Shown: positions 4,538 to 27,757, numbered from the whole stretch's first letter. The stretch: 61,835 bases of DNA, filler included, from Stramenopiles sp. TOSAG23-3 (GCA_900128585.1; 4 parts of 4 records of this genome joined end to end with filler, not necessarily neighbours in it); one strand, 5' to 3'. Numbers and translations: made by a program. Notes: generated by a model not told the origin, from the letters alone.

Positions 4538-5771
4538 AATACTAACAGTCCCTCTGTTCAAGGTTAAGCTAGAACAATCAAATCAACTGTTTATTTTATT
4601 CTCGTAATCCCCTTGTTAATGTTTAATTTTCTCAGAAGTAACTTTTGAAACATCTGTTTCCGAGTTTAATTACTGTTACGAAAAGAAAGAAGGAACTTTT
4701 TTGTTGACATACCAAGGTACCTGGTGGTAAAAAAAAAATATATTTGTTGACAGAAGACCGAACGACGACGACGATGAACAGATGATAAAAAAAAAATAAC
4801 GCTTTTTTTTAATCTGTTTTTCATAGGTATATCTAATGTTTTACTATATAAATAATTATACTTAATATGCCAACTTGTTTGCTTTTTTAAATCTCCAAAA
4901 GTGTATAGACTAATAATACTTAAATAGATGATATTTGCACTAATAATAAAGGAATCGTACAGTCTAAATTCTAAATTATATCTTCAAAAGAAAATTAACC
5001 ACAAAATTAAAATAAAAACAGCATTACACCAAAACCGCAGAGCAATCCCAACCACTACAATGAGGCAATTAATAAAGACGACTACCTCGTACGAGTATTA
5101 TTTATTTTTATTATCCCGCGCAAATAAAATAGACGACTAAATAATTCTCATTCGTTGGTTTTTTATTAAAATACTACATAAATTTTATTATATCAGGCGG
5201 CTGGGATCTCCTCTTCCTTCGTCCCCCCCCGTCCCTTCCCTTCCTTCTTCTTCTTTGCTTGGTGTTTTGATATATAATACTAATACTATGTATGTACAAA
5301 GCAACGAAGTCGTCTATATAGTAATACTACTAAATAAAGTAGATTTTTTGTTGTTTGTTGTTGTTGTGTGTGTTCTGTGTTCTGTTCTGTTGAAAGATGA
5401 TGATCTGATGATCTCCTCCGAGGAGAGAGAATATTATTTAATAATATCTAAATATAGAGGAGGAGTGTTATTATTATATTATTAGTATTATTATTATATT
5501 ATTATTTTTTTATTATTAAAAATAATAATAATAATAAAATAATAGTTGTGAAAGGTATCCTTTTTTGTTTGTGTATCTTTTATATAGTATTAAACTTTTA
5601 CATTGTCTTTTATATTGTATAAACGATTGAAACAGAAAAGAAAGAGGAAATAAACACTGACTCAATTAACTTCCGTGCTTTCTTTTCTTACGACAAACGA
5701 ATATAAATAAGCTTTTCAACAGTACACATCTATTATCTGAAATAGAAGCAAAACTACCGTCCAAGCCAACT

Positions 5772-9630: not shown

Positions 9631-10504
9631 GGATGTACCGTTCGTTATATCATCTTCATGTGGTGACTGGGGAAAGAGGATCCGTAAATGTGGGCAATCT
9701 ACCTTGAAAATCTGAAAGGCAATTGCACATGCACAAAATTAAAATGGTAGCTGACTGATGTTTTCTCCTTTTATGTCATCCTTTTTTAAGAAGATAAGTC
9801 GCAAAGTGTGCTGGGGCAGGATTATTATTCTCGCGCACTCTTCTTTTATTATTATTACTTCTTCTTATTATTATTATTATTTATATGTTATTACCACTGT
9901 TTAGTACCGTACCGGTACCGGTATTATTTCATACTTGGTACGGTAGAGGAAATGATCTTGAAGAAAGAAGAGGGGAGCAGCAGCTTTGTTGAGGTTGCAT
10001 GCAGGCAGGCGCTTACGACAGCAGCAGTCGTGTTGTAGGACGTTCGTAGTCTACCGTGGCAAGCGAAAAAAAGGAGTTAAACTTCCACACTTCTTGTTAT
10101 ACTTTTATCTTAGCTAAAATGGCAGCTGAGCAAATTAATGATAGTCGATATAGTTGTGTTAGACTACCATATTAATACTTGTTAGTGGTCTATGAACCAA
10201 ACTAGAAAATTTGCTAAGAAAATAATTACGAAGACAAATTGTTGTGCTTTGATTCTTTCTCTGCTATGCTATGCTATGTCATTATTTGATCTTTGCCCTC
10301 GCTCGTATAACGAATAATAAATAAAATAAGTCAAAGCAGTTTGCGTTATTTAGGTATCGTATTCTTTGTAATTTTAAGTATATAATTACATAGACGATAT
10401 CGTACGACATAAAAGTTAGTCCTCTCCCTCGTTATCAATTAAAATAGGTAAATTAAATTAGTATAATATTACTTTATACAAGTATGATTTGGCCTTGGCC
10501 TGGT

Positions 10505-13500
10505 CTACTTGCAATACAACGATTCTGGTGTGCATTTGGGCATATTTGGGTAGGTCGCCATGGCTTTCTCCAAGTCCTTCATAAACCTCCCTTCCATCGC
10601 ATTGATTTCCGTTGACTCGTGCTCGCGCGACATGGTTTCCGTTTCAACATTTACTATAGAGGGTGTCCCGTTGCCGCCCAACAACAGCATTGCGTTTGTT
10701 TCACCAAAAGTGCCAGACAAGCACTCTTTCATCCACGTTTTGTCCCACGCTTTTCGCCCTCGCTTTTGCCGTGCTTGTCGAGTTTCGCGGTCGAAATCCA
10801 TCGCCATCCGTTTAGCAGTACAGTCACTGTGAACCCATCCGAGGCCTTCGGCGTAAAATTCGCTTTGGCAGTGGTCTGAAAAGTCAATCGCAAGCTTTTC
10901 CCCACCAATCTTAAACTTCACCACTCTGGTGTTGTCCTCGTTCCCAGTCAGCCAGTGGCCAGCAATGCAGCGGGCGGGTATACCGAAGTACCGGAGTACA
11001 CTCACGTAAAAGAAGTTGCTGGTACCACAGACAGCGGTGTCCCCTGCAGCCAGCTCTTCCAACGACCCCGGTCCGTGGTCCTTGTGGGCATAGTAGTAAA
11101 AATGCATTTGAAACGTCTGGTAGCAGTGCGCTGCAAACTGATAGTCGGTCATCTTCTTCTTGTCCCATTTAAGCTCGTAAAATTCAATCCAACTCAGGAA
11201 ATTCGGCCCCGGGTTGAAAGAGTCCAGCTCAAGGTTTTCCTTGCGCTCGGCACTGCTCAGTTTTGTGACAGGGCGAACCCGCGTTCGGTCGTCCATTAAG
11301 TCGCCCGCTTCTGACTTCTTCATTAGTCGTATCCCACATCGGACGCTCGTCGTCTCCACGAGAATACTGATGCGCGATAGTTTTCGTCCTTTTTGTTGTT
11401 CTGGAGTAAAGTGAGGGTGGTTGCCTTTTTGGTTTTCGACCTCGTACTCAAAATTGTAGGGGCCCTTCACTATCCTGTCCTCTTGTGGGACTCGCTCGAG
11501 TTCTCGGAGCCCGCCAGTTCGAAAAAAACCGCACCATCCTGTCGTTTTCGTCGGTTCTTTCACGTACACCCGAACGTGCCCGGCCGGCTGCGTTTCGTGG
11601 CGGTACGGGATGAGCGCCGAAACCCGCCACTTCTTGTCAGAATCCCAAAATTTCGCATCCTCGGTTTGGGCGACATGCGACCGTCGCATCAGCCTACAGT
11701 TTTTGTTACTATGCACGAGCGTGAGCTTGTTGGCCGGCTGGGCGATAGTGTCCCAGATATCTGTGGTGCTTGGAGACGATCCCCCGTCCAAAAGGAAGCT
11801 AAAACGCTCCAGAAGCGCTTGCAGCGCTTTGGGCATGAACATTTTTTTCTGGCTAGCAGGCTTGTACGGGTGGCAAATCTTCCCTCCCGCCACGCGGGGG
11901 TTCGCTTCCTCGTAATACTCCTCGTCCATTCCGTTCCGCTCACCGTCTTCCAGAAAGTTCAGCATGAACGACTTCGTTACCATACTGTACATGATAGTGA
12001 AACCCCTGGCGACCGAATAGACGACCAAGACAGCCATAGCAAGGACAGCCACCGGGCTGGTTGTCCCCAACTGCTTGGAGACCAGCACCGCCGCCCCCAT
12101 GCCGGCCCCAAAGATAAAAAATGTCCCGAACCGTACCGAGAGAAGGATAAAAGACTGCATCCCGGTAACCCTCCGCTTGTTCCTCATCCACAGCTGGGAA
12201 CCGATCCTAGACGCGGCCTTGAAGTGGTGCCCGTGGAGGGCAACTTGGACGATTGCCGCGTCGCAGTCCACATACCGCATGGAATTCCAGCAGCAGCAGC
12301 GCAAGAGGAAAAGTCCAAGGCACTTGCGACGAAACTCTCCTTGGTCGGCCCGACCCTGACGCCTGCGGCAGCTGTCGAGACAGTCCATTATTGGCGCTTG
12401 GACAGCGTGGAACGGCCGGATGAACGCCACGTAGGCGATAGTGCCCATGTGATTCCAGAAGATTCTGGAAAACATGGTAAAAGTGGGGAAGAGCGGCATC
12501 CTTCGCATCCCGTCCTCCTCCTCGTCAGTGAAGAACCACACAGACAGCGTTCCTGATGTTGTGCAACGGGTGAGCTCCAACAGAATGTTCATGTTCCAAA
12601 CCATTCCAAACAATAGGAACGCGGCGCACCACCGCATGCCTGGGTCGAACTCAAAAGACTGTACGCACTTGCAATGGACCAGTGTGTTTTTTGCACATGT
12701 GCACATCTGCTGAACTTTTCCCACGCTCAGCACCTGCACGATCAAGAGGGATGTCCCCCAACCCAGCAAACAGAGCAGCCCAAAGTTGACCACAGGGTAG
12801 ACGAAAAAACCCGACCCGATCTGCTTCACGGCGTGGCTCATTTCGCCCATGACTGGCCAGGCATACTTTGCCAGCTTTCGCTTGCTGAAGAATGAGTAGA
12901 AGGACGTGCTGGAGATTATCAACACTACCGCTACCATCACCATGGTGGTGTCCGACGCGGTCGTGTCCGTCACCTCCTTCTCGATTTCAGCAGTCGGGAA
13001 GGCTACTAAATACAAGCCGACTATGATCACCAGGGTTACAAGGCCGGTCCCACACACAGTGCCACGAACGACGTTTTCCGCGTGCCTGGAGATAGCGTAC
13101 AGCCAAACGGTGCCAACGACGAAGGTGAGGCCGGCCGCTGTCATGATCGTGCTCAAGCCCGTTGCAAGATCTCCGAGGACAAGCATATCCCTTCCGATCT
13201 TCAGCTCGGCCTCTCCCGACTTTTGCGAATCCGGAAGGCAGCGGTTGAGCACGGGGCTCGTCGACCGCAGAACGGTGTACTTGGTCGCACTGGCGGTGTG
13301 ATCCTGCGCGACGACCATGTAGTCCACGATAACGGTGGAGTTCACGTCCGCAGGTCCCGGACACTTCTCCACGCACAACATGTATTTCGGGTCCGACGCC
13401 GGGTCCGGCCACCAAAGATATTCCTTTCTGCTCAAGTCTACGCCGAAACCGCCGGAATTGTGCTTGTTGACGTCGCCACACGTGTTGCCCAGCGTGTCAA

Positions 13501-14641
13501 CCCCGAATAGTAGCCGCTTTGGGTTCCCGTTCTTGCCCGCGTAGTCCGCTAGTGCGATCACGCACACGTAGAAGGCGACCAAGAATGCCAAGCAGCAGCT
13601 GTCCGTAAGCCTGCGACGGATCGAGGTCGGCTCCAGCTTAAACCGCGGTATCTCCCGGAGGGTATTCCCCACGTCTACCCCAAGCTTAACCTCATCGCCG
13701 AGCATGTCGTCCGGCGACTGTGCCATCTCGTCGATGTTTTCCTGGTATATCTCCAGCTGGGCGTCGGACATGGTGGAGAGGTCTTTGTTCCCCCACTGCG
13801 CTTCAATGAATCGCCCATTGCCAAACCCGCCCTCCACCTGGTCCGACCCAGTCACCCAGCCCCGGCCGTCACCAGCTTTTCCCGCATTCAGCAGGGTAAA
13901 CGCGCCCTTCAGCTTGCTCTCTGGGAGCTCCTCCGCGTCTGCGTTGGGCGCCGGGCGGTCGTCAAAGTAGGTCAACCTTTCCAGGGACGCTGCCGGGAAC
14001 GATTTCTTCCCCAAGTTCGCGAACCCTAAGCGAAACGTATTTCTCCGGTCTTCCGACCGAACGGAAACGCTGACATGGTACGGGGAGTTGTCGAACTCCA
14101 CGTTTTCCCGGCGCTGGGCTCGATTGTTATCGCCCGGCAACCCCACGGCCTGCAATTTCCCCATCTTGGCCATGTTGCGCAGCAGCTGCTCCCGGCTCTG
14201 GGTGTCCCGCAGCGATGGGGCCATCATGCTCAGCATGTCCGCGGTGTTGCCCATCCGCCACATCTCCAGGAACGCCCGAGTGGCCTGTTCCACGTGGAGC
14301 GCAGGCTTGCAAACAAGGCTGCTAATGCATAGCGATGACGGCTTTAGCGGCGACCGCTTAATCCCAAAACGAAACTCGATGGGGCATATGTTGTTGGACG
14401 ACAAGCACGTGACGGAAACATCGAAAGGGTCTGCGTCCGGCTTCAGCCCACCGCAGCTGGTCCAGTCCAGGTCCTCTACGTTGACGTTTGTGATCATCGA
14501 ATCAATATCCCTTTGGGAACACTTCTCCCTATACTGCGGTCCTAGCAAACCATGACAAGTAGAAGCATCTCTGTCCCTCCACGCCGCCAAGAATTCCTCG
14601 ACGATGTCTTCTATCTCGCACTGGTCAATAGCTAAGTCCAT
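10505..14641 (-). CDS. CTL/SLC44-like membrane protein fused to a C-terminal transglutaminase-like domain (triad intact), with N-terminal duplicated NTF2/DUF3887-like units
   Basis: CTL motifs RRLTDSCCL, GNPKRLLFGVDTLGNTCG, CVEKCP, GTLSVWFF, HMGTIA, NFLEDGERN. TGase core VCGTSNFFYVSVLRYFGIPARCIAG...DHCQSEFYAEGLGWVHSD. Confidence 0.85.
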   Translation of the reverse strand: MDLAIDQCEIEDIVEEFLAAWRDRDASTCHGLLGPQYREKCSQRDIDSMITNVNVEDLDWTSCGGLKPDADPFDVSVTCLSSNNICPIEFRFGIKRSPLKPSSLCISSLVCKPALHVEQATRAFLEMWRMGNTADMLSMMAPSLRDTQSREQLLRNMAKMGKLQAVGLPGDNNRAQRRENVEFDNSPYHVSVSVRSEDRRNTFRLGFANLGKKSFPAASLERLTYFDDRPAPNADAEELPESKLKGAFTLLNAGKAGDGRGWVTGSDQVEGGFGNGRFIEAQWGNKDLSTMSDAQLEIYQENIDEMAQSPDDMLGDEVKLGVDVGNTLREIPRFKLEPTSIRRRLTDSCCLAFLVAFYVCVIALADYAGKNGNPKRLLFGVDTLGNTCGDVNKHNSGGFGVDLSRKEYLWWPDPASDPKYMLCVEKCPGPADVNSTVIVDYMVVAQDHTASATKYTVLRSTSPVLNRCLPDSQKSGEAELKIGRDMLVLGDLATGLSTIMTAAGLTFVVGTVWLYAISRHAENVVRGTVCGTGLVTLVIIVGLYLVAFPTAEIEKEVTDTTASDTTMVMVAVVLIISSTSFYSFFSKRKLAKYAWPVMGEMSHAVKQIGSGFFVYPVVNFGLLCLLGWGTSLLIVQVLSVGKVQQMCTCAKNTLVHCKCVQSFEFDPGMRWCAAFLLFGMVWNMNILLELTRCTTSGTLSVWFFTDEEEDGMRRMPLFPTFTMFSRIFWNHMGTIAYVAFIRPFHAVQAPIMDCLDSCRRRQGRADQGEFRRKCLGLFLLRCCCWNSMRYVDCDAAIVQVALHGHHFKAASRIGSQLWMRNKRRVTGMQSFILLSVRFGTFFIFGAGMGAAVLVSKQLGTTSPVAVLAMAVLVVYSVARGFTIMYSMVTKSFMLNFLEDGERNGMDEEYYEEANPRVAGGKICHPYKPASQKKMFMPKALQALLERFSFLLDGGSSPSTTDIWDTIAQPANKLTLVHSNKNCRLMRRSHVAQTEDAKFWDSDKKWRVSALIPYRHETQPAGHVRVYVKEPTKTTGWCGFFRTGGLRELERVPQEDRIVKGPYNFEYEVENQKGNHPHFTPEQQKGRKLSRISILVETTSVRCGIRLMKKSEAGDLMDDRTRVRPVTKLSSAERKENLELDSFNPGPNFLSWIEFYELKWDKKKMTDYQFAAHCYQTFQMHFYYYAHKDHGPGSLEELAAGDTAVCGTSNFFYVSVLRYFGIPARCIAGHWLTGNEDNTRVVKFKIGGEKLAIDFSDHCQSEFYAEGLGWVHSDCTAKRMAMDFDRETRQARQKRGRKAWDKTWMKECLSGTFGETNAMLLLGGNGTPSIVNVETETMSREHESTEINAMEGRFMKDLEKAMATYPNMPKCTPESLYCK

Positions 14642-14845
14642 TGGTGGAGTGAAAGTGGGGGAGGAGCGAAGGAGAGAAAGCTATTGCGTTCAATTCCCTT
14701 TCGATTTGTTCCTGTGCTGTTTGAGCATAATACTTGTTATATATTTAATTCACAAAAGACCAGAATAACACTCTGCAAATAAATATATTGTAAAAAATAA
14801 GAAACCAATTAAAGTCTAGTCTTCTACCGGTATTAATATCTATAA

Positions 14846-15055
14846 GCAAACACAAACAAACAAACAAACAAACAAACAAAATAAAAATTTATTATAAAAC
14901 TTCTTCTTTTTTTTGGCGAGCGAAGAAGAAGAAGAAAAGAAATAAAAAGAAATAAAAAGAAATATTACTGTATTAGACTATAAAAAGAAATAAAAAGAAA
15001 TAAATAAAAAAAAAGAAATAAAAAGCAATAAAAAGAAGAAGATAGAAGAAGAAAA
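14846..15055. repeat. Simple repeats (CAAA)n, (GAA)n and (AAATAAAAAG)n in the divergent spacer of the CTL pair
   Basis: Directly visible. Confidence 0.85.
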
Positions 15056-15858
15056 AATTAATATCAAAAAAACAGTGCTGTGTCCATATTATATTAATGT
15101 ATCTTTTTTTATTTGAATATTTCACTATTTTTTTTATTATTATTGTATTTATTATTAGACTAATTAGCTCCTCCTCTCGTGTATGAAATGTACAATAGAA
15201 TCAGGGAGATGATGGTTCGTGGTTTCGTGGTGCAAAGACTATTTTTTTTTTTATAGGACTAATAAAAAAAGAAGAAGAATCATTCCCACTCCATTTTTTT
15301 TTCATCTCATCAGCTACGAGGAGTCTACGCGTAGACGCTATTATTATATTTTATCTAGTAGTACTCCTAGACGTAATAAACGCAGACGCTTTCATATGTC
15401 ATTATTTAGGACTAGCTTTCAACTGATCAAACGACTTCCTGACTAAATCCACGGAGTTACGATTACGGGATAAAACTACTACAAAATTGGCTTTTCAATT
15501 AGTCTAATTTATAATTTTATAAAAAAAAGAAGATACAAAAAAATTTATCATTTTTTCTTTCTTCCTGCTCTCTTCATTTTATACAACAGTGTTGTAATAA
15601 ATTATAATTAAAAAAAAAAAATTTTATTATAATAATATATTTTTTTAACAATAAAAAATAATTATTAAGAAACAAATTGAATTTTTTTTAAATGATTGAT
15701 ATCTCCTTCGATAATAAGTGTACTATAATAAAATATCTTGTTGTCCCCTCCTTCCGCCGATTACGACCGTTTCTATTAAAGCTGTAGTTCGTGTTTCGTG
15801 TTTCTTGGGGAAACGGGTGGGTCTTAAAACAATCGACCGACGAAAACGAGTTGCCGCC

Positions 15859-18800
15859 ATGTCCAAAGCGGACGAAGAGGACATCAAGCTGTGCAAAGAA
15901 ACATGCAAGCAGTTCTTGGGGCATTTTGGGAAGAAGAAAACGAGCCTGCACTCACTTCTTGAGCGAAAATCTTCCGCTGCGAACTCCTTGCTGAAGGGAA
16001 CGATGGGGCGGGCGTATTTGCGGATAGGGAAAGACCGGGCGGTGGAGGTGGACTCGAGCTCGTTAACGGAGGTCACCGAAGTGGAGTCGCTGTTCTCCTA
16101 CAAGGCGAACTTTTCTGTTGGTGGCGCAAAGTTCGAGCTCAAGTTTAAGAACAATTCCAAGTCGCATAAAATAGAACGGCTCTGGGTGGGGCCCCGGGGG
16201 GGCGCCATTCCAAAGGGGGGGGAATTCGACTCCTCCCTGGTCGTGCTATTCAAAGAGGGTTACGAACCGGACAAGAACGACTTTGAGTTCGACCTGTACG
16301 CCCGGCCAAAGGCCCGGTCTTCCGCGTACAAGGCGGCGAAGCTCCACTTCGGCGACGAGCACTTGCTGACGATAAACGCTGGGAAGCCTTTGCCCGAAAT
16401 TGCGAGAGAGAAATTCGACGTCCTAGCCATTCGACGGTACCATCGGGACAAGGTGTGGATCCTGATTTTCCTGCTTTACTGGGCTATCGAGATAGGGGTT
16501 GCAAGCCACGCGGTCGCAAACGGCCGGCTGGACCGGGTCCTCCACGGGGTGGACTCGCTCGGGAACATCTGCGGCTCGAACAACGACCTGGTAGACCTTA
16601 CGGACAGGCCAAAGCTGTGGTACCCGAACCCGGAAGAGAACCGCGCGATCTGCGTTAAGGTTTGCCCCGTTGCCAACCAAACGGCGCTAGTCGATTATTT
16701 GGCCAACATCGCAGCCCCGAACGGGACGGCGCCGCCCCTGAGGGTCACCGTAGGGACCGTCGACGTCTCGCACCGCTGCCTTCCCATCGATGGGCAGTCA
16801 GCAAGCATCATGTCGGCCTCCGCTACGCTGTTCTCGGACGTTCAGAGCGGTTGGGTGTCCTCGCTCTTGACCTGCGTGGTGGCCTTTCTGCTCGGGCTAT
16901 TGTGGATGAAGGCCATGCTGTGGAATCCCAGGGGGGTCATCGGCAGCTTGACCTGCGTGGCGCACTCTGGCTTGCTCCTGTTCTCTGGCTCGTTCTTTGT
17001 CTCGTACTTCGTCGTGGAATTGCCAGAGGGGCTCCCCGCCAGTGCAAAGAGCCACCTGGTGGACCCGAGCGCTCAGACCTTCGCCATGGTGGTAGGCATC
17101 TTCTCCTTTGCCGCGTTTGTCTTTCTCGTGTACAAGGACTGCAAGCTTCGGAAGGACGCCGGCAATGCGATGAAAGTGTTTGACCTTACCTCAGAAGCGT
17201 TGAACGAGTGCAACGTGGCCATCGTCCACGCCAACTGCCTTCCGAAGAAGCTGCCTTGCAAAGGGAGCACTGCGGCGGTGGAAAAGGAGGAGGGTGGTAA
17301 GGCTGCCGACGTTACAGTGGAGGTGGAAGGGGAAGAGGAGAAGGCCCCAGATCGCACGGTCGACCTTCGGCCCATCCTGACCTTTCCGGTGTACAATTTT
17401 TTCATCCTTGTCGCGTTTCTGGTACTATGGTGCGTGGTCTTCGTCCACCTAATATCCTTGGGGAGCATCGAGCAAAAGTGCAAGTGCGCCAAATCGCTGT
17501 CCAACTGCTCATGCGACCGGTATTTTAGGTTCGACGATGGCGCGCGCTGGTTCGCGATAATCCACCTGTATGGGCTACTGTGGGGCGTGGCGTTGGTCGT
17601 GAACGTCTCCCGGGTGACGATCTCGACCGCCGTGAGCACGTGGTACTTCGCAGAGGCCAAAGACTTGGAAGTCCGCGTCGTCCCGGCGGACCTCATCCGG
17701 ACCAGCTACCGACGGGCGCTGGTCTACCACTCTGGGAGCCTCCTAAAGGCCAGTTTTTACCACCCTATCGTCGCCGTGGTGCGACCGCTGGCGTTTCTTT
17801 TCCTGAAGCTGCGAAACATGCTGTCCTGCGTCAACCGAATCACCTTTGGCTTCCGCGGCTGTTTGCGCTCGGCCCTTCTCGGGTGCTGCTGCTTTCAGAG
17901 CATTGCGTACTTGGACGTCCGGGCGGCCATGCAGCAGATTGCCCTCCGAGGGTCTTCTTTCCTCCGTGGTGCGGAGGTTGGCACGAAGCTGAAGATGCGC
18001 AACGAGGGCCGCGTTCGTGGGCTGGAGGAAGCGATCGAATTTAAAATGATGTTTGGGAAAACCGCGATATTCTGCATCAGCTTCTTTGTGGGGTTTCTGT
18101 ACCTGCGGGGGTCCGGGAACTCGGGCGGCTCCGTGGGGGCTCCCATCATTGTCTTGATTCTGAACTGCATCGTGGCGTACGCCACCATGTCCCTGTTCGT
18201 CTCGCAGTACACCATGAGCATCGACACGATATTGCAGGACTTCTTTGAAGACTGTGAACGGAACGTCCGTAGTACGGAGGTGTTCATGCCACCAGAATTT
18301 CGAAAGTTTATCGACGATTACGGGTACTACACCTCCGGAACGTTCCCCTCCGACCCGACCGCAATGTACACAAAGCTGTTCAAGGCGAAGAAACTAGGGG
18401 TCATGCACGTTCCCACCAAGGAGACCATGTGCCATTACGTGACCACCATGGATGTTTGTCTTCACGACAAGACTGCTTGGCCGGAGGAAAAAGAGGGCTG
18501 GTTCATCAAATGCGACCGCCCCCTCGACCACGAGTCACAGCCGAGAAACACGCTTGAGGTGTTCCACAAGAAGTACGGCAGGAACATTTTAGACAACTTT
18601 ACCTCGCTCGTCAAGATCCCTGTGACGGCCAAGGGCTTGGCGGGTGACGGGCCGTGGCGAGAGGGCCTCAAGCACATCATGTGGGATCAAGTTCGGTTGC
18701 CACGCCGCTCGGCTGGGTATCAACGACTGAATGCTATGGACCCAGGGGAAGCGATCAAAAGGGCTGCGAATGACCCCCACGCTTCCCTGATCCAACAGGG

Positions 18801-19797
18801 GCAAGTGAAAGCATTTCACGGGCTGTGTGAGAAAGGGCTGCACGAGCAGTACTCGCCGCAGCAGTGCCTTCAGTACGGGTGGGGATCGATTGCTCTGATG
18901 GTGAACATGAAAACTTTGCGCGTGGCGCGTCGGCTGATCGATGTGGAGGAAGACGCAAGTGTGAGTTGTGCGCCGCCGGCCCAGCTGTCTGCCGTTGAGA
19001 GGGAGTCGTATCTTGCAGACAACGGGTTCGACAATGAAGAGTTTAAAGACTGGTGCCGAGCGAATGATCTCGTAATGAACAAGGAAAAAGGCTTGCACCC
19101 CGAGCTATCCTTCGCCAAAGATGCATTCATCTTCCTTCACCAAAACTTTTATTTTTTTGACTCCTCTCGAGGGTGGGTTCCAACGAAACCCGTCGAAGTG
19201 ATCAAAGGAGACGTTGGCTCCTCGGGAACGATAAACAACTTGTATGTAGCCATCCTGCGCTACAATGGAGTCGTAGCCCGCTGCCTGAGCGGGGCCTGGC
19301 TGTGGTCGAACGACGGCTCGTACACCGCACAGGGGATTCAGCGAGGGGCAACTGAGGGCGAAATGCTGGCCATGGACTTTCAGCGACGAACGATGTCGGA
19401 GTTCTACCTGGATGGGATAGGCTGGGTCCCTACAGATGCGACGCCCACACGCCTCAGCTCGAACAATGACCCCATAGCTCGGCGGGCCAGAGCAAAATTG
19501 GGCAAGTATGGGTGGAGGAAGGACCTGTCCATGACTTGCATGGCGAATTTTGGGAACGACAGCGGGCTTCTGCTCCTTAATACTGCAGGGTTTGAAATGG
19601 GGAAGCCCATGGTGCAATTTGGTCCGATCGGAAAGCCCATGGGGGATGTATCGTTGAATGCGCGAGAGTTTCAGTGCATCGACCTGGCGGTGTCTGCGTA
19701 TAAACCGACCAAGGGGTTTAAGGACGAACTTTACGGCGCGAAGGAGGCGCTCACTCCAGTTGACCCCAATGATGAAAAGGCGCAATTTAAGGACTAG
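15859..19797 (+). CDS. CTL/SLC44-like membrane protein fused to a catalytically degenerate transglutaminase-like domain; paralog of 10505-14641
   Basis: RRYHRDKVW, GRLDRVLHGVDSLGNICG, CVKVCP, AVSTWYF, HSGSL, IDTILQDFFEDCERN. TGase-like SSGTINNLYVAILRYNGVVARCLSG...RRTMSEFYLDGIGWVPTD. Start at gccgccATG 15859. Confidence 0.85.
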   Translation: MSKADEEDIKLCKETCKQFLGHFGKKKTSLHSLLERKSSAANSLLKGTMGRAYLRIGKDRAVEVDSSSLTEVTEVESLFSYKANFSVGGAKFELKFKNNSKSHKIERLWVGPRGGAIPKGGEFDSSLVVLFKEGYEPDKNDFEFDLYARPKARSSAYKAAKLHFGDEHLLTINAGKPLPEIAREKFDVLAIRRYHRDKVWILIFLLYWAIEIGVASHAVANGRLDRVLHGVDSLGNICGSNNDLVDLTDRPKLWYPNPEENRAICVKVCPVANQTALVDYLANIAAPNGTAPPLRVTVGTVDVSHRCLPIDGQSASIMSASATLFSDVQSGWVSSLLTCVVAFLLGLLWMKAMLWNPRGVIGSLTCVAHSGLLLFSGSFFVSYFVVELPEGLPASAKSHLVDPSAQTFAMVVGIFSFAAFVFLVYKDCKLRKDAGNAMKVFDLTSEALNECNVAIVHANCLPKKLPCKGSTAAVEKEEGGKAADVTVEVEGEEEKAPDRTVDLRPILTFPVYNFFILVAFLVLWCVVFVHLISLGSIEQKCKCAKSLSNCSCDRYFRFDDGARWFAIIHLYGLLWGVALVVNVSRVTISTAVSTWYFAEAKDLEVRVVPADLIRTSYRRALVYHSGSLLKASFYHPIVAVVRPLAFLFLKLRNMLSCVNRITFGFRGCLRSALLGCCCFQSIAYLDVRAAMQQIALRGSSFLRGAEVGTKLKMRNEGRVRGLEEAIEFKMMFGKTAIFCISFFVGFLYLRGSGNSGGSVGAPIIVLILNCIVAYATMSLFVSQYTMSIDTILQDFFEDCERNVRSTEVFMPPEFRKFIDDYGYYTSGTFPSDPTAMYTKLFKAKKLGVMHVPTKETMCHYVTTMDVCLHDKTAWPEEKEGWFIKCDRPLDHESQPRNTLEVFHKKYGRNILDNFTSLVKIPVTAKGLAGDGPWREGLKHIMWDQVRLPRRSAGYQRLNAMDPGEAIKRAANDPHASLIQQGQVKAFHGLCEKGLHEQYSPQQCLQYGWGSIALMVNMKTLRVARRLIDVEEDASVSCAPPAQLSAVERESYLADNGFDNEEFKDWCRANDLVMNKEKGLHPELSFAKDAFIFLHQNFYFFDSSRGWVPTKPVEVIKGDVGSSGTINNLYVAILRYNGVVARCLSGAWLWSNDGSYTAQGIQRGATEGEMLAMDFQRRTMSEFYLDGIGWVPTDATPTRLSSNNDPIARRARAKLGKYGWRKDLSMTCMANFGNDSGLLLLNTAGFEMGKPMVQFGPIGKPMGDVSLNAREFQCIDLAVSAYKPTKGFKDELYGAKEALTPVDPNDEKAQFKD

Positions 19798-20004: not shown

Positions 20005-23000
20005 TTAAAAGATGTTGTAAATCTTTGCTGGGGACGCCGCTTCCGGGCTTCTGCTTCGCAATTGTCGTATCCCGTCCGCCAATCCCTTTTCTCTGCGAGT
20101 GGGAACCCGCTTCCATGTTCTATAGTTTGCCACAGTTATTGGAGATCGTTTGCACGAGACGAGCTTCTCCTCTTTCTCCGTACCAGAATTCTTCAAAAAA
20201 CTCGCCATGTCAATCGTCGACGGTCCAAGCGAACTCTCTGCCCCACTCTTCGTGTCTATCAAAAAATTCGCCAGATCGGTCGTTGAGGGGGACCGTGTCC
20301 GATTCCCCTGCCCAAATGATAAGGAGGGAGGAGAACTAACAAAATAGCGAACGCTCGTCTTCCGGGGTGAAGTTCCGGAAAAAGGATTGTTCAAAAGCTT
20401 CGACATCTCGCTTGTCAACGGGGCAAACGTCCGCAGCCCAACGTCTTCGTCAAAAATAGGTGATGCGGGCAACTGATAATCTAGGTCCGTCTCATCCGAT
20501 TCCTCCTCTTCGATCATCTCAGGGGTCTCTTCCATCTCTTCTTCAATCATCTCGGGTGTTTCCTCCAAGCTTGGTAGTGGGGGCAACTGATAATCAAGAT
20601 CGGCCTCGTCCGATTCCTCTTCGTTCTCGGCTGGTACTGCCTCCTGCACTCCTTCGATCATATCTTGAAGTTCCATAATTTGTTTGCTTAAAACCCCGAG
20701 AGCGTGTCGCCTTTCCTGATTATTCTGCAAACCCCGTGTTTTCTGAATTTCAGACTTAATTGCAGAAAAGCTGCTTTCAACGCCCTCCTCCTCCTCGCTC
20801 TCTTCGGCCGTACTTTCGTTCCCCTTGCTTTCTGGCGTTGCTGGTTCCGTGATATCTTCAAAGTGCATTCGAACGAAAAAATCCTTCCGAAAAGTTCGGT
20901 GCCCTTTGTCTTTCACAGCATCGTCTATCTGCTCTTTCGAGCGGCCAAGCTCCAAGCGATCATGGACCATTGCACTGTTTATCCACGTCTGGAAACACTT
21001 TTCCGGCTTTCGCCCAGCAATGGTGTAAAACACCAGCTTCATGTCTCCCTGAAACACCATACCACGCAATGGCCCGAAGGTAAGCCCCTTGTTCTCTCGG
21101 CCGCCGTCGCCCTTTGCTTCACCTCCGCACACCTCTGCCAAACCTATCTCCATGCGGCTGTCGTACAAAACGGTTGTGTCCTTCTCCGGCAAAGGCTCGT
21201 CCGAGACGGGAATCACACCGCTGTGGTAAGAGGGTGTTATGGCTTGAAAGAAGAGCTTCGACCCCTCTTTTAAGCGAATGTTGTTAATCTCCAAACGGTG
21301 TATCGATTTTGGGTTTTCCAAATTGGCGTTATACTGGGCAATGTTTCCAACGTACCGATGGTAATAATGAACGTACTCGCGCTGAGATGGAATGGTGACG
21401 CCCTGGTGATTCCGTGTCCGTCGATTCCCATACATATCAAGGGCAAGGTTCGGCAATACTCCGGACTCGACCATCAAGCAGCAGACAAAGAGTCCGGTGC
21501 GTCCCTTTCCTGCTTTGCAGTGAATTGCCACAACATTCTTGCTGTCCTCTTTCAGAAACATAATGGCGTGCTCACAAAACTGTTTTATAAATGGAAGAGG
21601 GCATGCGTTGTGGTCCGAGAATGGAAATCGAACCACGCGGCCCCCAAACTTCTTTGCGTCGTACTCCCTCTCCTCACACAAGTTGTAAATCAGGTAATGG
21701 TCCCTGTGGTAATACTCGAGGAACCGCAACGTCTCCGTCAGCCTGTTCCGATACAGCGTTTGTGCACCCTCGCACGGGAAACCCATTGCAATGACCTTGT
21801 TCGTAATATATGTAAGGTCCAAATCGAACCCGTCGTGAATGAACCGGTTCTTTTTCAAAGAAACGGTGTGCCTTGCTTTCCGCACCAAGTTTAAGTCCCA
21901 CGAGGAGTACGTCGATGTTGGGTTTACCTTCAATCTATCGTCCTCCTCGTGTACAGCCTCGCATGCAGAAACCACCCTTACGCCCGCGTTCCCCTCTTCA
22001 ACTTGCATTACCTGGCACGCCAGGGTTTCCGTGATCCAGGACCGGCCGATAATGCCCAAATCGACTGTTCCTAGGGTAGGATTTTTCTCCTCCACGTCCT
22101 TGCCTTCGGCATCGTCAGGCTGCTCCGTTGGTGCGTCCTCTTCTAAATCGTTCAGCTGCCACGTCTTCTCAGAGTCTGCAAAGATCACGTCCTCTTGCCT
22201 CTGCGGCAGCTGTTGGGCACCACTGGAACCCTGAACGTCGAGTGCAATTGGCTGGTATTTGGAAAGTATGGGCGTCGACCGGAGCTGGGGCAGCGCAGGC
22301 GGACGGTACATGGTGCTGTCGGAGCCACTGTCTTGCGCTTGGTGATCGTTCTCCCCGCTTCTGCTCCCTTCGGAGCTGAGGGTGGGGCTCAACTTTTTGG
22401 CGAAAATATCGATCAATGATTTTCGCTTGTGGCTTCTCTGCCTCTTTGGCGGCGGTCTGTTGTTGGAAACAAAATCTTCCACCGTCGATTGACGATTTGA
22501 GAATCTATTTTTCCGGTCCCGCATCGTCCGGAACGGAGAGCTCGAGTCGCCCTTCAACATGTATCGTTTTTTGGACGAAAGCCACGTGTGCGACATGTCG
22601 GTGCCGAGGTAGTTAATCATGGCATGGTAAGACTTCATGCTGGCTGCAATGGGTTCCTCTGGAGTGCTGCAGCCCTCTCCATATTTGTTGACAAGGATGG
22701 ATGATAGAATCGCGATCCGTAGCTCGTCCCTGTTTGCCAGCACAAATTCGCGAAACACGTTCTGGTCCTTATGTTTTTTCTTGGAAGGGTCCTTGCTTGT
22801 GCCAGCCTTGTCGTGTTTGAACGGGGAGAAGGGGTTGGTTACAGGCTGCGACAGCTCTCGAAGAAACCGGTGCATCTTCTCCGACAGGTCGCCGATGTAC
22901 TGCTCCATGACATCGAACCAGGGATAGTTCTCGATATGGTGCTGTCCAAACGCGGCTGCCGAGAGCATTTTGTCGATCAGAAATATCGCGCGCTGCTGCC

Positions 23001-24147
23001 TCTCCCCGAGCGTGCCGAGCACGGAGCCCGACAAAAGCTCCGGCTCCACGATGCGGGAGATTAGGAGCGATGCCAGCGCAGCAATGCCATGCCCTGGGAA
23101 TCGCGCTTCGCTGGTGGCAAAAACTGCCGCGCACAAATGTCGCAACGCGCCTGAACAGTTTGGAACAAATTCTATTGCCTGATCTAATATGGAGTGAACA
23201 ATTCTTGCCAAGCTCAACGCGTGCCTCCCCACCACCCCCTCGTATTCCTCCGCCTCCTCTATGAAGTCTTGGTCCACCTCAAAGTCGTTCTTCTCCTCGT
23301 CCCACAAGTTATCCACCACCGGCTGCAGAAGGCTGTGGTACAGGCCTGATTTCCCTTCGGCTTCTGCTAGGGACTGGCCGTACGCCTCAACAAATTTCAA
23401 GGCGCTGCTCTCAGACTGAAATATTGCCTCTCCAAAGCTGGTGCGGTTAAGTTCTACATCTAGCAAATTTTCCAGGAACTGCTCGCTCCTCCGCTTCCCA
23501 TTCAACTTCAAGTCACCCAAGAACCCCATCAAAACTGCACACACTCGCTTCATCGTTTCCTTGCCAAAAAATAGCCTGATCTCATCTCGAACAAAAGCAT
23601 TTGGTATCAAAAACGCGCCGTCATCACTGATCATCAAGTGGGTGTCCCAGTGCGTGTCCGTAGTGCCACGTCTTGTGACGACAATATCATGCCGCTGGCG
23701 GACATCGTCTTCCTGAATGGTGGTGCCCTGAAGGCAGCCCACTTGTGACATTCTTCCCTTCTTTTCAATCGTTAAATACTCGCACAGAAGGTGCTGTGAT
23801 ATCTTTCGGTCTATATTTGGGGCGAGTAGGAATACTTTGAGCCACTCAACCAGTTCATCCGCAAACTGCGCCAGCAGGTGGTACGTGCGGTCGGTCGTCA
23901 TCACGTCAAAACAGTAGCGGTACGAAACGTCCTCCAGGACCACCGGCAGGGCAGACAGAGCGTTTAACGCTTTCACAGGCGATACTTCGATTACATCATC
24001 CAGGGCAATCGAGCCTTGCAGGTCCATCCGCTGAGGAGACTTTTGGTATCCAACTGCAGCGGTGGTGGGATCGTACACAAACCAACGCAACTTCCAGGAC
24101 GTGTTGATTTTTCCTCTCTTCAACAACCAGCCTCTTAAGGCTGCCAT
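20005..24147 (-). CDS. Multidomain PH + RasGAP-like + PTEN phosphatase + C2 protein
   Basis: PH (RGWLLKRGKINTSWKLRWFV). RasGAP-like helical segment (LRHLCAAVF..RFP..LLISRIVEP). PTEN motifs FDLDLTYIT, FPFSDHN, HCKAGKGRTG, GVTIPSQ. C2-like GDMKLVF..FQTWINS. Confidence 0.85.
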   Translation of the reverse strand: MAALRGWLLKRGKINTSWKLRWFVYDPTTAAVGYQKSPQRMDLQGSIALDDVIEVSPVKALNALSALPVVLEDVSYRYCFDVMTTDRTYHLLAQFADELVEWLKVFLLAPNIDRKISQHLLCEYLTIEKKGRMSQVGCLQGTTIQEDDVRQRHDIVVTRRGTTDTHWDTHLMISDDGAFLIPNAFVRDEIRLFFGKETMKRVCAVLMGFLGDLKLNGKRRSEQFLENLLDVELNRTSFGEAIFQSESSALKFVEAYGQSLAEAEGKSGLYHSLLQPVVDNLWDEEKNDFEVDQDFIEEAEEYEGVVGRHALSLARIVHSILDQAIEFVPNCSGALRHLCAAVFATSEARFPGHGIAALASLLISRIVEPELLSGSVLGTLGERQQRAIFLIDKMLSAAAFGQHHIENYPWFDVMEQYIGDLSEKMHRFLRELSQPVTNPFSPFKHDKAGTSKDPSKKKHKDQNVFREFVLANRDELRIAILSSILVNKYGEGCSTPEEPIAASMKSYHAMINYLGTDMSHTWLSSKKRYMLKGDSSSPFRTMRDRKNRFSNRQSTVEDFVSNNRPPPKRQRSHKRKSLIDIFAKKLSPTLSSEGSRSGENDHQAQDSGSDSTMYRPPALPQLRSTPILSKYQPIALDVQGSSGAQQLPQRQEDVIFADSEKTWQLNDLEEDAPTEQPDDAEGKDVEEKNPTLGTVDLGIIGRSWITETLACQVMQVEEGNAGVRVVSACEAVHEEDDRLKVNPTSTYSSWDLNLVRKARHTVSLKKNRFIHDGFDLDLTYITNKVIAMGFPCEGAQTLYRNRLTETLRFLEYYHRDHYLIYNLCEEREYDAKKFGGRVVRFPFSDHNACPLPFIKQFCEHAIMFLKEDSKNVVAIHCKAGKGRTGLFVCCLMVESGVLPNLALDMYGNRRTRNHQGVTIPSQREYVHYYHRYVGNIAQYNANLENPKSIHRLEINNIRLKEGSKLFFQAITPSYHSGVIPVSDEPLPEKDTTVLYDSRMEIGLAEVCGGEAKGDGGRENKGLTFGPLRGMVFQGDMKLVFYTIAGRKPEKCFQTWINSAMVHDRLELGRSKEQIDDAVKDKGHRTFRKDFFVRMHFEDITEPATPESKGNESTAEESEEEEGVESSFSAIKSEIQKTRGLQNNQERRHALGVLSKQIMELQDMIEGVQEAVPAENEEESDEADLDYQLPPLPSLEETPEMIEEEMEETPEMIEEEESDETDLDYQLPASPIFDEDVGLRTFAPLTSEMSKLLNNPFSGTSPRKTSVRYFVSSPPSLSFGQGNRTRSPSTTDLANFLIDTKSGAESSLGPSTIDMASFLKNSGTEKEEKLVSCKRSPITVANYRTWKRVPTRREKGLADGIRQLRSRSPEAASPAKIYNIF

Positions 24148-24803
24148 GGTCAGCGGGAAAACGGGCACCGTGCGAAGCAGAAAATCCTTCCTTTCGTTCA
24201 GAGATCTTGTATGAATTCTCTCTCTCTTTCCGCTTCGCCTGGAATTACAAATTATTCGAGTCAGGACATGTGTGTGTTAACAATCATCCACGAGTATCGT
24301 GATGATAAAGAAACAATTTAAATGGACTATAAATATATATGAACGGGTACCCCTAACTTCCTTCCATAATAATAATTTTAAAAAAATGTTTTTTTTCTTT
24401 CTTCTTCCTTTTTTTTTTTCCCGCTATTGTTTGTTTGTTTTTTATTAGGTACCGGTACGGTACGAATACAAAGAGAGAAGAAGAAAATATCCAAAATTAA
24501 AAATTAAAATTACTCTCAGTCTATCTCTAGTAAAAAAAGGCACAAAAAAAAACTGAAAACGGGGAAGGAGGTAATCCTATCATTTTTTTTACTTACTGGT
24601 GGGTGGGTGGGGTATTCAAGAATTAAGATTTCGTTGGACTCATATACGTATAATCCTCGTAAGTAAGTACAGCATGCCATAATAAATGAGAGATGAATGG
24701 GGCTGTTATTTTAGGTACAGTTACGAAGGTATTTTAAAATTTAATTATTTACTTCCTTTATTCCATTTATGTTCACTGCGTATCAACTTACAAGTATTAT
24801 TCT

Positions 24804-25016: not shown

Positions 25017-25131
25017 TATTCTATATTGATACTTCTATTTACTATAAGCTTATGAACTCTTTTAGCCAACAACTATTTTGCTTTGCCCCTCGACATAAGT
25101 GCCGGTACTGGTGCATTCTTCTGCACTATCG

Positions 25132-27757
25132 CTATATCAAATCGGTCGCTGGAAGGTGTGCTCCATCTTCATTCTCCACGAACGAGTCTTCGGGCTCAAA
25201 AAAAGCTTCCAAATGCTGTTGCTGCTGCTCCATCGCGACGCGCCTTCTTCGCTCTTCCAGCCTGGTTCGATACTCTGGGTGGCGTTCAAGTGACGTTCGC
25301 GCCCGCTCTACGAACGCCATCAGCGGCTCCTCGGTTCCCCGGCGCATTGTCTCAAGGTCATCCTCGAACTTTGCCGCACTATCCACTGCCTCCGCCTTGG
25401 CCACGTTCTCAAACACCCGGGTAGCCCTCATCAAGTACTTGCTCATGCTCTCCTTTTTGCGACGTTTTGGCAAAAGCTCCACGTCCGTACGGCGGCGGTT
25501 TGCCGCGCCGGGCTTCGGGTGGCTCTCGGCGATGCTGGCCGGGATGTCGCTTTTGTCCATACCCATTGCCTGTGCTGCCCGCATCACCAAGTTGTTGTTT
25601 CTCTCCAGCCCCGCTGAATGGGTTTTTCGACCTTTCTTTCCCGATTTCTTCTTCTTCCCGACCCGGCTGGTGGTTTTCCCCTCGGCCTCGAAGCTTTGCC
25701 GTTGCTTATTTTTGCCGAAATTTTTGCTGTACTGCTGCTTTTGCCGGACGCCAGCGGCCGCGCTAATTTCAGCGCGCCTGCGAGCTTCTTCCTCCAGCTT
25801 CAGCTTTTTGTCCAGGTTCTCCCGCGCGGCTTTCTCCGCCTTCTTTTTCTTGCGCTTTTCTTTGCGCTTCTTTTCGAGTAGCCTCTCTTTAATTTGCGCA
25901 CGAACCTTTTTCGTGTGTTCTTTCCGCTCGGCCTTCTTTGCGGCCTCTTCCTCCTCCAACTTTCTCGTGTTTGCTTCCTCGACGACTTTCTTCTCTATGG
26001 CGAGTTTCTCCATTCGTATACGACGACGGTAGGCATCTTCGCGCTGCCTCCTCTGTGCTTCCAACTGCCTTTGTACCTCTTCCTCCTGAAAGATGGCCTG
26101 TTGCAGGGCGCACTCTTTCTCGTACTTCTTTCTCTCCACCGCTTTACGGGCCGCTGCCTCGCGCATACGGATCCGTTTCTTCTTCTCCTTCTCCTCCCGC
26201 AGCTTCTTGGAGGCCTGCTTCACCTGCTCCTTCGCTTCTTCTTCTTTTTTTTCCAAAACCTTTTGCTTTCTTTTCTCAATCTTTTCCTTTTCAACTGCTG
26301 CGCGAAGCTTCTCCCTCATTTTTTTCATCCCATCGTTGAACCGTTTCTCGCGCTCCGCCTTCTCCCTTTCTTCCTTCTCCTTCATCCTTTGGGCGTGCTG
26401 CCTCTCGATCTCTTCCTGTTTTTCCCGTGCGGCAGCGTTCTTCTTGCTCTGCTCGCGCACCCATGCCAGGCGCTTCCTTTCTATTTCTGCGACTTTCGCG
26501 GCGCCCGAAATTTTTGCCTCTAGTATCTCGTCCCGCTTTCCTGGTCTGACCATTTCTTTCATCTTTCTCAGCCCACGAATCACGTTGATCGACCCCCCCC
26601 ACGCTCGTCACCGAGGCCTGCTCCAGCTGGGTAGGGTCGGCCCGGGTGGCCCCTCCGCTGCTGCTGCTCGAGGTCTTGTCGAACCGAGCCTCGTCGCGCT
26701 CCAGTTGATCCCTCCAGCTCTTTGAAAATTCACTTGCCTTGTCCAAAAACTCATCGTTGTAAGAGTACTTTGGCTTCCCCGAATCGTCTTTCAGTCCGGC
26801 CAGGTTGAGACTGAACCCCCCGAGCCCCTTGGCCGGTTCGCCGGCGCTCGCATCGACGATTGGGGCCGCCGACGACGCCGCCGCCGTCAGGTTGAACACC
26901 TCAAACCCATTTCCCTGTCCTCCCTGCTCGACCTCACACACTGCACTGTCTATGCACTCCACGCACAGGTCGTAGCAAAATTCGTACACTTTTTTCCTGG
27001 CCCGAGCAATTCGTCTGCCCATGTGCCCGCGGGCGTACCGCTGTATGGTCGCCTTCGCCTCCCTTCTTTTCTTTACAATTTTTTTTGTTCTGTACCCACG
27101 GTACAACGTCTGAAATGCAAGCGCCCCCCAAAGCTCCTGGCATGCTTTTGTTTCTCGATTGAGCCAAATCATGCTAACCCACCGTTGGATCAGGACTGCC
27201 GCCTTGTCCCGCTTCTGTTCCCAGTGTTCAGCATGCGAGCGCCAGCACCGTTGAATCATGGTTGTGGCAAAGCACCTCAGGTGCGCCTGGCGAACCGTGC
27301 GCATGGTGGTAAACTCTTTCTTGGCCATGAATGCTCGAAATCGGGTCTGTATAAGCAGCGCTGATTTGTACAAAAGGTGACGTTTTCTTCTGGAATTCAT
27401 CCGTTCCTGCCTTCTCTTTCTCTCAATTTCTCTTTTGTTAAGCTCATCTTTGACGCGTTGAACCTCCTCTTCCAGAAGTTGCACGTTCCGGTCGCGCTCG
27501 CACAGGGCCTGCTTTGCGAGCTCCCTCTTCTCTTCCAGCTTGTTCTTATACGTCGTCCCCGTCAGGGTAGTGTCGTTGAAAAATCTACCTTGCAGATGGG
27601 AAGTGAAACGGGAGGACTGGACGTTGCCACGAAAAACTCTGGAATTGGCAGTTTGCATTGACACTAAATTGTTCTGTATATGCCGTGCGTGTCGAACTGG
27701 CGACTGCGGCGCACGTGGGACAGGGCGATAGTTTTCGTTACCGCGTGGAAAGCTCAT
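25132..27757 (-). CDS. IQ-motif/coiled-coil protein; two overlapping ORFs probably one gene interrupted at a G8 run (26593-26600)
   Basis: IQ motifs (IQTRFRAF, IQRCWR, IQRWV, FQTLYRGY, IQRYARGH) in ORF 26291-27757 and a charged coiled coil in ORF 25132-26583. Removing one G joins the frames. Confidence 0.65.

Follow-up and report, generated by a model that had tools for sequence, protein, structure and literature searches.

A divergent gene pair of the stramenopile TOSAG23-3 fuses CTL/SLC44-type membrane domains to transglutaminase-like domains, one with and one without the Cys-His-Asp triad

Introduction

What is the function of two neighbouring genes that each fuse a membrane domain of the choline transporter-like (CTL)/SLC44 type to a transglutaminase-like domain? 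This question is raised by positions 10505 to 19797 of a 61,835-nucleotide (nt) stretch of DNA from Stramenopiles sp. TOSAG23-3 (GCA_900128585.1), which consists of 4 parts of 4 records joined end to end with filler and is called the window here. The two genes, A and B, are transcribed divergently. A sequence-only reading of this DNA had taken them for an old, maintained pair of paralogs with a fusion of which it knew no description, and had proposed a membrane machine that couples amine transport or sensing to transamidation, deamidation or proteolysis. Here, we report that the pair is indeed old and maintained but that A and B are not equivalent: the Cys-His-Asp triad of transglutaminase-like enzymes is complete in A, B has neither the Cys nor the His, and yet no segment of either protein is better conserved than the transglutaminase-like core. 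From these sequences we propose, with a probability of about 0.5, that A is a membrane-tethered cytosolic thiol enzyme and B a pseudoenzyme, the CTL domain serving as anchor and possibly as sensor.

Results

Genes A and B share one architecture

Both genes were found as open reading frames (ORFs) without stop codon or frame break, and the same ORFs were found again in independent assemblies. The two ATG codons are 1,217 bp apart, in line with the distance of about 1.2 kb given before. The ORF of gene B extends from 15718 to 19797 on the plus strand and has 1359 amino acids (aa) counted from a GTG. Its true start is most likely, judged from related sequences, the ATG at 15859, which gives a protein of 1312 aa, because the database protein P0009 (1312 aa) begins there and the B ortholog at metagenomic locus L003 aligns only from there. 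P0009 has the same length and N-terminus as B and differs from it in few residues. In the following, "ORF residues" of B are counted from the GTG at 15718 and all other B residues from the ATG at 15859. The parts of the pair are:

10505-14641, minus strand: gene A (P0001), 1378 aa from ATG, a CTL-fold membrane protein with a transglutaminase-like domain keeping Cys-His-Asp
13937-14641, minus strand: gene A, N-terminal soluble region (residues 1-235), two tandem repeats by hhalign
11942-13621, minus strand: gene A, CTL/SLC44-type membrane domain (residues 341-900), from Pfam, hydropathy peaks and loop Cys
11162-11941, minus strand: gene A, linker (residues 901-1160), with the motif W-x6-P-x2-H-x2-Q-P at 11585-11629
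10823-11161, minus strand: gene A, Transglut_core (residues 1161-1273), Pfam, 36.2 bits
11027-11029, 10871-10873 and 10823-10825, minus strand: gene A, triad codons of Cys1205, His1257 and Asp1273, verified
14642-15858, no strand: divergent spacer between A and B, 1,217 bp, AT-rich with microsatellites, presumed shared promoter region
15859-19797, plus strand: gene B, 1312 aa, A-like architecture with a triad-deficient transglutaminase-like domain
16444-18258, plus strand: gene B, CTL/SLC44-type membrane domain (residues 196-800), Pfam E-value (E) 1.3e-46
18259-19089, plus strand: gene B, linker, with the motif WFIKCDRPLDHESQP at 18499-18543
19090-19440, plus strand: gene B, transglutaminase-like core (residues 1078-1194), Pfam, 35.5 bits
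19222-19224, 19387-19389 and 19435-19437, plus strand: gene B, core codons of Ser1122, Arg1177 and Asp1193, verified

The two-domain architecture seen earlier in both paralogs was recovered with Pfam scores above the curated cut-offs. Choline_transpo (PF04515, cut-off 26.9 bits) was detected in A at residues 572-900 (E 2.2e-36, 126.2 bits) and in B at ORF residues 553-847 (E 1.3e-46, 159.7 bits), and Transglut_core (PF01841, cut-off 23 bits) in A at residues 1161-1273 (E 7.9e-9, 36.2 bits) and in B at ORF residues 1125-1241 (E 1.3e-8, 35.5 bits). The Transglut_core matches cover profile positions 9-107 in A and 10-108 in B, of 108, and both end at the Asp. No other Pfam family exceeded its threshold in A or B, and a search of NCBIfam returned 0 families. 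A and B were aligned over 1,135 residues with 25% identity (E 5e-103), beginning just ahead of the first membrane helix. Motifs of this shared part are WRVSALIPYRHETQP, LRYFGIPARCIAG and SEFYAEGLGWVHSD in A and WFIKCDRPLDHESQP, LRYNGVVARCLSG and SEFYLDGIGWVPTD in B; every motif quoted before is present, with the correction that W and P of the linker motif are separated by six residues and not by four.

The N-terminal parts differ. Repeat 1 (residues 1-112) and repeat 2 (residues 113-235) of A matched each other over 84 columns (hhalign probability 87%, E 4.2e-6); in Pfam they gave sub-threshold hits only, DUF4864 (E 0.022) and MecA_N (E 0.09), which are hints to an NTF2-like domain. A glycine-rich stretch leads from the repeats to about residue 340, and a tail of 105 residues extends beyond Transglut_core. 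In B the N-terminal domain is single and shorter, the order of parts being otherwise the same, and the alignment revealed an acidic insert between helices of its membrane domain that A does not have. Linker residues W1005, P1012, H1015, Q1018 and P1019 of A are invariant in the family alignment; up to E 10, the linker of A had no match in Pfam, and its best score in the Atlas search, 0.78, was within noise.

The catalytic triad is kept in A and lost in B

To assign the catalytic positions, the C-terminal modules of the family, each comprising linker and transglutaminase-like core (about 480 residues), were aligned and residues were counted over the representative sequences covering each position. 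The positions follow from three features: the motif context G-x-C...LRxxGIPAR...H-x3-E-x-Y...GW-x3-D, which we take to be the canonical surroundings of a transglutaminase-like triad, the near-full coverage of the Pfam profile up to the Asp, and a weak alignment to TgpA. In this profile alignment to TgpA (6g49; E = 1, illustrative only) the segments LRxxGIPAR, DAHAW and SVDPT fall into the same columns.

The core of A-type proteins reads GDTAVCGTSN ... HC(Q/K/A)SEFY ... (S/T)DCT, with Cys in 7 of 7, His in 9 of 9 and Asp in 9 of 9 sequences; cluster members sharing at least 90% identity agree with this census and are not independent of it. In contrast, B-type proteins read GD(V/I)GSSGT(I/M)N or, in one lineage, GDTGDTATLN. 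At the nucleophile position Cys was found in 0 of 6 sequences, Ser in five and Thr in one; the His position is occupied by Arg in three of four and by His in one (the P0035 lineage), and the Asp is present in 4 of 4. The corresponding residues in the window are Cys1205, His1257 and Asp1273 in A and Ser1122, Arg1177 and Asp1193 in B. Hence A and B are not equivalent: since B has neither Cys nor His, at most one subunit can be a conventional thiol enzyme.

As a separate observation, A-type proteins carry an invariant Cys directly after the catalytic His and another directly after the Asp (Cys1258 and Cys1274, HC...DC), and B-type proteins have neither.

Both proteins are best conserved in the transglutaminase-like core

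Constraint was judged by per-domain identity instead of the ratio of nonsynonymous to synonymous substitution rates, because the orthologs for which DNA is available are 57-61% identical in protein, so that synonymous sites would be saturated. The core of A is 80% identical to that of each of two orthologs, with 56-75% in the other segments. For the core of B, identity amounted to 83% with the L003 ortholog and 46% with a second relative, compared to 53-69% and 29-41%, respectively, in the other segments. The core is the best conserved segment of A and of B, which agrees with the earlier view of a maintained pair, and the core of B, as judged from sequence identity, is a conserved triad-less domain and not a decaying one.

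The fusion arose once and the duplication is old

A word-indexed search found 4 proteins among 4,989 candidates, three A orthologs with 69%, 61% and 57% identity and the window's own fragment. An exhaustive HMMER scan of 1.84 billion representatives with residues 330-1378 of A gave 743 matches at E ≤0.001. The best 150 of the 743 comprised fragments of the family and ordinary CTLs, mostly of 550-900 aa and 22-36% identity; larger than 1,000 aa among these 150 were the B-type proteins P0009 (1312 aa) and P0010 (2383 aa) as well as P0091 (1608 aa). Stand-alone relatives of the transglutaminase-like module were not found, since the searches for them gave family members only (3 of 761 candidates, and 9 of 4,176 at E up to 10). 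The family sequences come from JGI, ENA, Logan, one NCBI metagenome record and EukProt, and the sole informative name, 'Stramenopile-MAST_4_protein_1550', belongs to a cluster 69% identical to A. With this protein of a MAST-4 marine stramenopile as the nearest relative that has a name, a MAST-4-like origin of the window is probable. The family appears to be small and confined to uncultured marine protists.

A quick IQ-TREE phylogeny of the CTL domains, rooted at the midpoint, was calculated from 7 family members and 35 ordinary CTLs picked from the HMMER list. The CTL domains of the fusion family were separated from the 35 ordinary ones by a long branch with a support of 100 in the Shimodaira-Hasegawa-like approximate likelihood ratio test (SH-aLRT); a long-branch contact with the ordinary sequence P0050 was flagged in this tree. 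Within the family, a clade of A (SH-aLRT 91) and a clade of B (SH-aLRT 99) were resolved, and a distant EukProt organism has a member in both, P0014 in the A clade and P0010 in the B clade. Therefore, the fusion arose once and the duplication into A and B predates the divergence of that organism; the pair is old, as had been supposed.

P0010 (EukProt g2104.t1, B-type, 2383 aa) has about 1,000 additional C-terminal residues, which include a Walker-A-like GANGTGKS. The gene model has probably been merged with an ABC-type gene that lies downstream; a real longer fusion is less probable.

The head-to-head arrangement recurs in a relative

A metagenome scan yielded 7 loci from 363 pattern matches. 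In L001, an A ortholog (61% identical) is encoded at 789-4904, and an ORF on the opposite strand lies 505 bp upstream of it and runs off the contig end. From MDGGAEKK onward, this ORF matches the N-terminus of the full-length B ortholog of L003 (P0161), from which it follows that the head-to-head pair is conserved. The flanks are different: Cpn60 and an ATP synthase alpha/beta subunit lie downstream of A in L001, an unassigned protein of 523 aa in the window. The synteny looked for thus recurs in a different gene context. In EukProt, g2103.t1 (A-like) is followed in the numbering by g2104.t1 (B-like), which suggests that the two genes are adjacent in the distant organism as well, orientation aside. 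Loci L004-L007 share 23-27% identity with the CTL part only, on contigs of 1.6-2.7 kb.

No conserved block was detected between the spacers of the window (1,217 bp) and L001 (505 bp), and co-regulation of A and B is suggested by the common divergent spacer only. Besides, tandem repeats were detected at 14852-15058 of the window, namely a AAAAGAAATA-like unit in about ten copies and an (ACAA)7 microsatellite.

In L002 (916-5030), an A-type ortholog with 57% identity is split into ORFs of 791 and 574 aa by a break near 3291-3309. The second ORF, which is open at its 3' end, retains Cys, His and Asp. The break could be an assembly error or indicate a pseudogene.

Contigs from RNA libraries cross the domain junctions

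Parts of the window are contained in 20 listed sequencing runs, of which 12, from 9 studies, are recorded as RNA. Four of these runs, from four studies and including two poly(A) libraries, were compared; their contigs inform on presence and continuity and not on level, strand or ends. Contig pieces matched with at least 99% identity in 12 of 13, 16 of 16, 16 of 16 and 12 of 12 cases per run. A contig of 1,805 nt (10467-12271) starts beyond the stop codon of A and leads through core and linker into the end of the CTL domain, and a contig of 1,882 nt (17862-19743) covers the same junction in B. Contigs crossing the junctions differ by 0 or 1 letters, and no splice joints in A or B were reported among the contigs of the four runs. 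These data fit coding regions that are continuous and unspliced and include both domains. The silent-stretch control showed no DNA-like cover in the four runs. The bins 9700-10407 and 15010-16071, including the start of gene B (15859-16071), were not covered in the four runs, which is not interpretable as a finding.

Membrane topology

A crude hydropathy scan gave 11 windows, some of them overlapping, in A and 8 in B. The loop between transmembrane helices 1 and 2 contains four Cys in each protein, at 388, 423, 427 and 468 in A and at 238, 265, 269 and 307 in B. They are the only Cys of these loops and are invariant in 29 of 29 aligned CTL sequences. Further, the loop carries N-x-S/T sequons, one in A and two in B. 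A profile built from the family alone matched the solved structure of CTL1 (7wwb) with E 7.4e-30, and 9qu3 was also matched; the CTL part of A alone gave 0 matches to PDB sequences at E up to 0.01. According to the available part of a structure-function study published in 2026 (PMC13160678), CTL1 has ten helices, an extracellular M1-M2 domain and a bowl opening outward. Because CTL1 has ten helices with M1-M2 outside and the four loop Cys and the sequons are conserved here, we infer by analogy that both termini of A and B, and hence the transglutaminase-like domains, would be cytosolic.

Neighbourhood of the pair

Each gene examined in the window is one uninterrupted ORF, orientations are mixed and spacers are AT-rich, with a GC content of about 0.31-0.39 compared to about 0.45-0.59 in coding 2-kb bins, which fits a compact, intron-poor protist genome. 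Convergent to gene B, with stop codons about 207 bp apart, lies a gene at 20005-24168 on the minus strand which encodes a 1387-aa protein composed of a PH domain, a RasGAP domain, a PTEN-like dual-specificity phosphatase and a PTEN C2 domain; RNA-library contigs of two runs reach into this gene. Long ORFs overlap on both strands at 25052-27757, namely 25052-26032 (plus), 25132-26583 (minus) and 26291-27757 (minus, with an IQ motif), and may be one gene with a frame change or an intron. Other genes of the window code for a sideroflexin, CAP, TMEM161, an Ofd1-type oxygenase, a C69 peptidase and a sulfatase. Neither an Rfam family nor a tRNA was detected in the window.

Discussion

How could a live and a dead transglutaminase-like domain work on the same type of membrane anchor? 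In the model that we prefer, a ten-helix domain of the CTL/SLC44 fold would carry cytosolic extensions at both ends, the N-terminal repeats and the C-terminal module of about 480 residues. On the cytosolic side of the membrane, Cys1205 of A would attack the side-chain amide of a protein glutamine, an isopeptide or an amide bond of another kind, and the thioester would be resolved by water, as in a protease or deamidase, or by an amine, as in a transamidase. B would keep the fold to bind the substrate or to regulate A, and the CTL domain would be an anchor, and probably a platform for sensing ligands or lipids, instead of a proven transporter.

Several points weigh against this proposal. The Transglut_core matches, with about 36 bits, are modest by sequence score; the C-terminus of A alone had no significant match to solved transglutaminase-like chains (0 in the PDB at E up to 1), and the core profile matched TgpA only, with E = 1. 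AlphaFold models of A residues 905-1378 (13 alignment rows) and 1120-1340 (15 rows) reached a mean predicted local distance difference test score of 44.1 and 45.1, respectively, and are too poor for claims on the fold; in the second one, at low confidence, a helix begins at Cys1205 and is followed by strands. Foldseek gave 0 matches for the model at E ≤0.001, the best being TgpA (6g4h/6g49) and peptide:N-glycanase (PNGase, 1x3w) with E about 0.5 and a template modelling score of about 0.2. In favour of the domain assignment, as a lead only, 25 of the 30 ESM-Atlas clusters nearest to A residues 1100-1378 are Transglut_core. Hydropathy peaks alone do not set the helix count, and the cytosolic placement derives, by analogy, from the topology of human CTL1. 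RNA-library contigs alone do not prove transcription or a single transcript. Cys1258 and Cys1274 might form a redox switch or a metal site, instead of or beside a simple triad. Finally, both catalysis by A and a partnership with B are putative. A complex prediction for the C-terminal modules of A and B gave a score of 0.00, with alignments unused and the partner fold uncertain, and is evidence neither way. Since CTL1 was seen as a dimer in one structure and as a monomer in the other, going by what is available of the structural study (PMC13160678), a heteromer of A and B held together by the CTL domains is neither favoured nor contradicted.

The strongest competitor is the idea that neither core is an enzyme and that both are binding or scaffold modules which tether cytosolic partners to a CTL-fold membrane protein whose own activity would be what the system serves. 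B-type cores are without the Cys in all six sequences, yet form the best conserved part of B, and as the core of B is as conserved as that of A without a triad, the selected function of the domain need not be catalysis, which also speaks against our preferred model. Moreover, inactive members or relatives of PF01841 with scaffold roles, EPB42, FBXO21 and the Rad4 family, are documented in the accessible part of PMC10318531. The triad is, however, kept without exception in A-type proteins, in orthologs down to 57-61% identity, and this is hard to explain without catalysis or active-site chemistry. On balance, we consider a pure scaffold unlikely.

More speculative, and quite unlikely as a whole, is a far-reaching version of the preferred model in which the CTL domains are not solute carriers but outward-facing bowls that sense ligands or lipids and control a cytosolic thiol amidase or transamidase, with A as catalytic subunit and B as obligatory pseudoenzyme partner, expressed from one bidirectional promoter. 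Substrates would then be amide or amine groups close to the membrane, such as glutamines of proteins or links between proteins and phosphatidylethanolamine. If true, the stand-alone CTLs of animals, plants and yeast may use separately encoded transglutaminase-like partners.

The sequence-only reading leads to a model in which the CTL domain would import a primary amine such as ethanolamine for use as acyl acceptor and A and B would form a heteromeric machine for transport-coupled transamidation. Indeed, A, B and every full-length relative seen have the fusion, A retains the Cys-His-Asp that transamidation needs, and biotin-cadaverine was incorporated by the purified periplasmic TgpA domain when this was assayed for transglutaminase activity, as described in the available part of PMC3507681. 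Its starting point, that CTL/SLC44 proteins are established choline or ethanolamine transporters, is contested: CTL1, PNS1 and CherI caused no uptake of choline or ethanolamine in oocytes, the closed, bowl-like CTL fold was judged by the authors not to be reconcilable with any known transport mechanism, and they proposed a non-transport, regulatory role for CTL proteins (PMC13160678, from the portion available). Further, the CTL domain of the family stands on a long branch apart from the 35 ordinary CTLs, so that even proven CTL transport might not carry over; B cannot be a conventional transamidase, and no result links an amine to the transglutaminase-like domain. Coupling to amine transport is thus unsupported, and we regard this model as improbable.

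Less probable still is that B is an enzyme in its own right with a hydroxyl nucleophile, Ser1122 in the window and Thr in one lineage, so that the pair would consist of two enzymes with different chemistry. The pattern of Ser in five and Thr in one of six sequences, together with the Asp in 4 of 4 and the His retained in the P0035 lineage, would be compatible with this, but Arg replaces His in three of four sequences, window B included, and with it the general base is gone. We know of no member of the transglutaminase-like fold family with a Ser nucleophile. An artefact, either an assembly chimera or a read-through ORF uniting two genes, is hardly credible, since several assemblies and sources, independent of each other, contain full-length ORFs of this architecture, RNA-library contigs span both junctions and the window genes have neither stop codon nor frame break, the split frame of the A-type ortholog in L002 (791 and 574 aa) being the sole sign in this direction.

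No paper on a CTL-transglutaminase fusion was found in full-text searches of one literature collection, in part judged by titles and the beginnings of abstracts, in keeping with the earlier statement that the fusion is undescribed. Now that it is debated again what CTL/SLC44 proteins do, a conserved fusion to a papain-fold amidase or transamidase would be a concrete and testable functional link, and the duplication into a live and a dead copy that have remained neighbours would be a further one, offering a clean natural pair of enzyme and pseudoenzyme. The family occurs in RNA-library contigs of marine metatranscriptomes from several studies and may therefore be relevant to the cell biology of grazers that are abundant in the ocean.

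Compared to known CTL/SLC44 proteins (human CTL1/SLC44A1, 7wwb and 9qu3; yeast Pns1, 9f63; Arabidopsis CherI), A and B share Choline_transpo, the four loop Cys and the FxEDxERN with which the last helix ends. Stand-alone proteins of about 600-700 aa are the rule in this family, whereas A (1378 aa) and B (1312 aa) have additional domains at both termini and their CTL domains form a separate, long-branched clade. The pocket residues of CTL1, as far as given in the available part of PMC13160678, look unconserved in A and B when mapped by hand. On the enzyme side, PNGase (Png1/NGLY1) is comparable in that these are cytosolic papain-fold amidases with Cys-His-Asp from the same Pfam clan, and it was among the top, non-significant Foldseek matches. 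Unlike A and B, it is soluble with accessory domains of its own, and it gave no significant sequence match to them. EPB42, FBXO21 and Rad4/XPC resemble B in that the fold is kept and the catalytic residues are lost, and a precedent for a dead domain on a polytopic protein is known from bacteria, the 'inactive transglutaminase fused to 7 transmembrane helices'. None of these families had a Pfam match in A or B, and for the bacterial fusion the score in the Atlas search, 0.78, was below noise. What sets B apart from these inactive transglutaminase-like proteins is that its partner gene encodes a live paralog with the same architecture. TgpA of Pseudomonas aeruginosa (6g49, 6g4h) is also a polytopic membrane protein with Transglut_core and a conserved triad and was the top, though non-significant, match by sequence profile and by Foldseek. 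Its membrane domain, DUF3488 (PF11992), has no Pfam match in A or B, and TgpA is bacterial, with a transglutaminase domain that is periplasmic and located between helices (PMC3507681, available part), whereas the domain of A and B is C-terminal and presumably cytosolic. By analogy, TgpA may be regarded as the nearest functional counterpart, and A and B would be the eukaryotic, cytosol-facing equivalent of bacterial membrane-anchored transglutaminases of this type.

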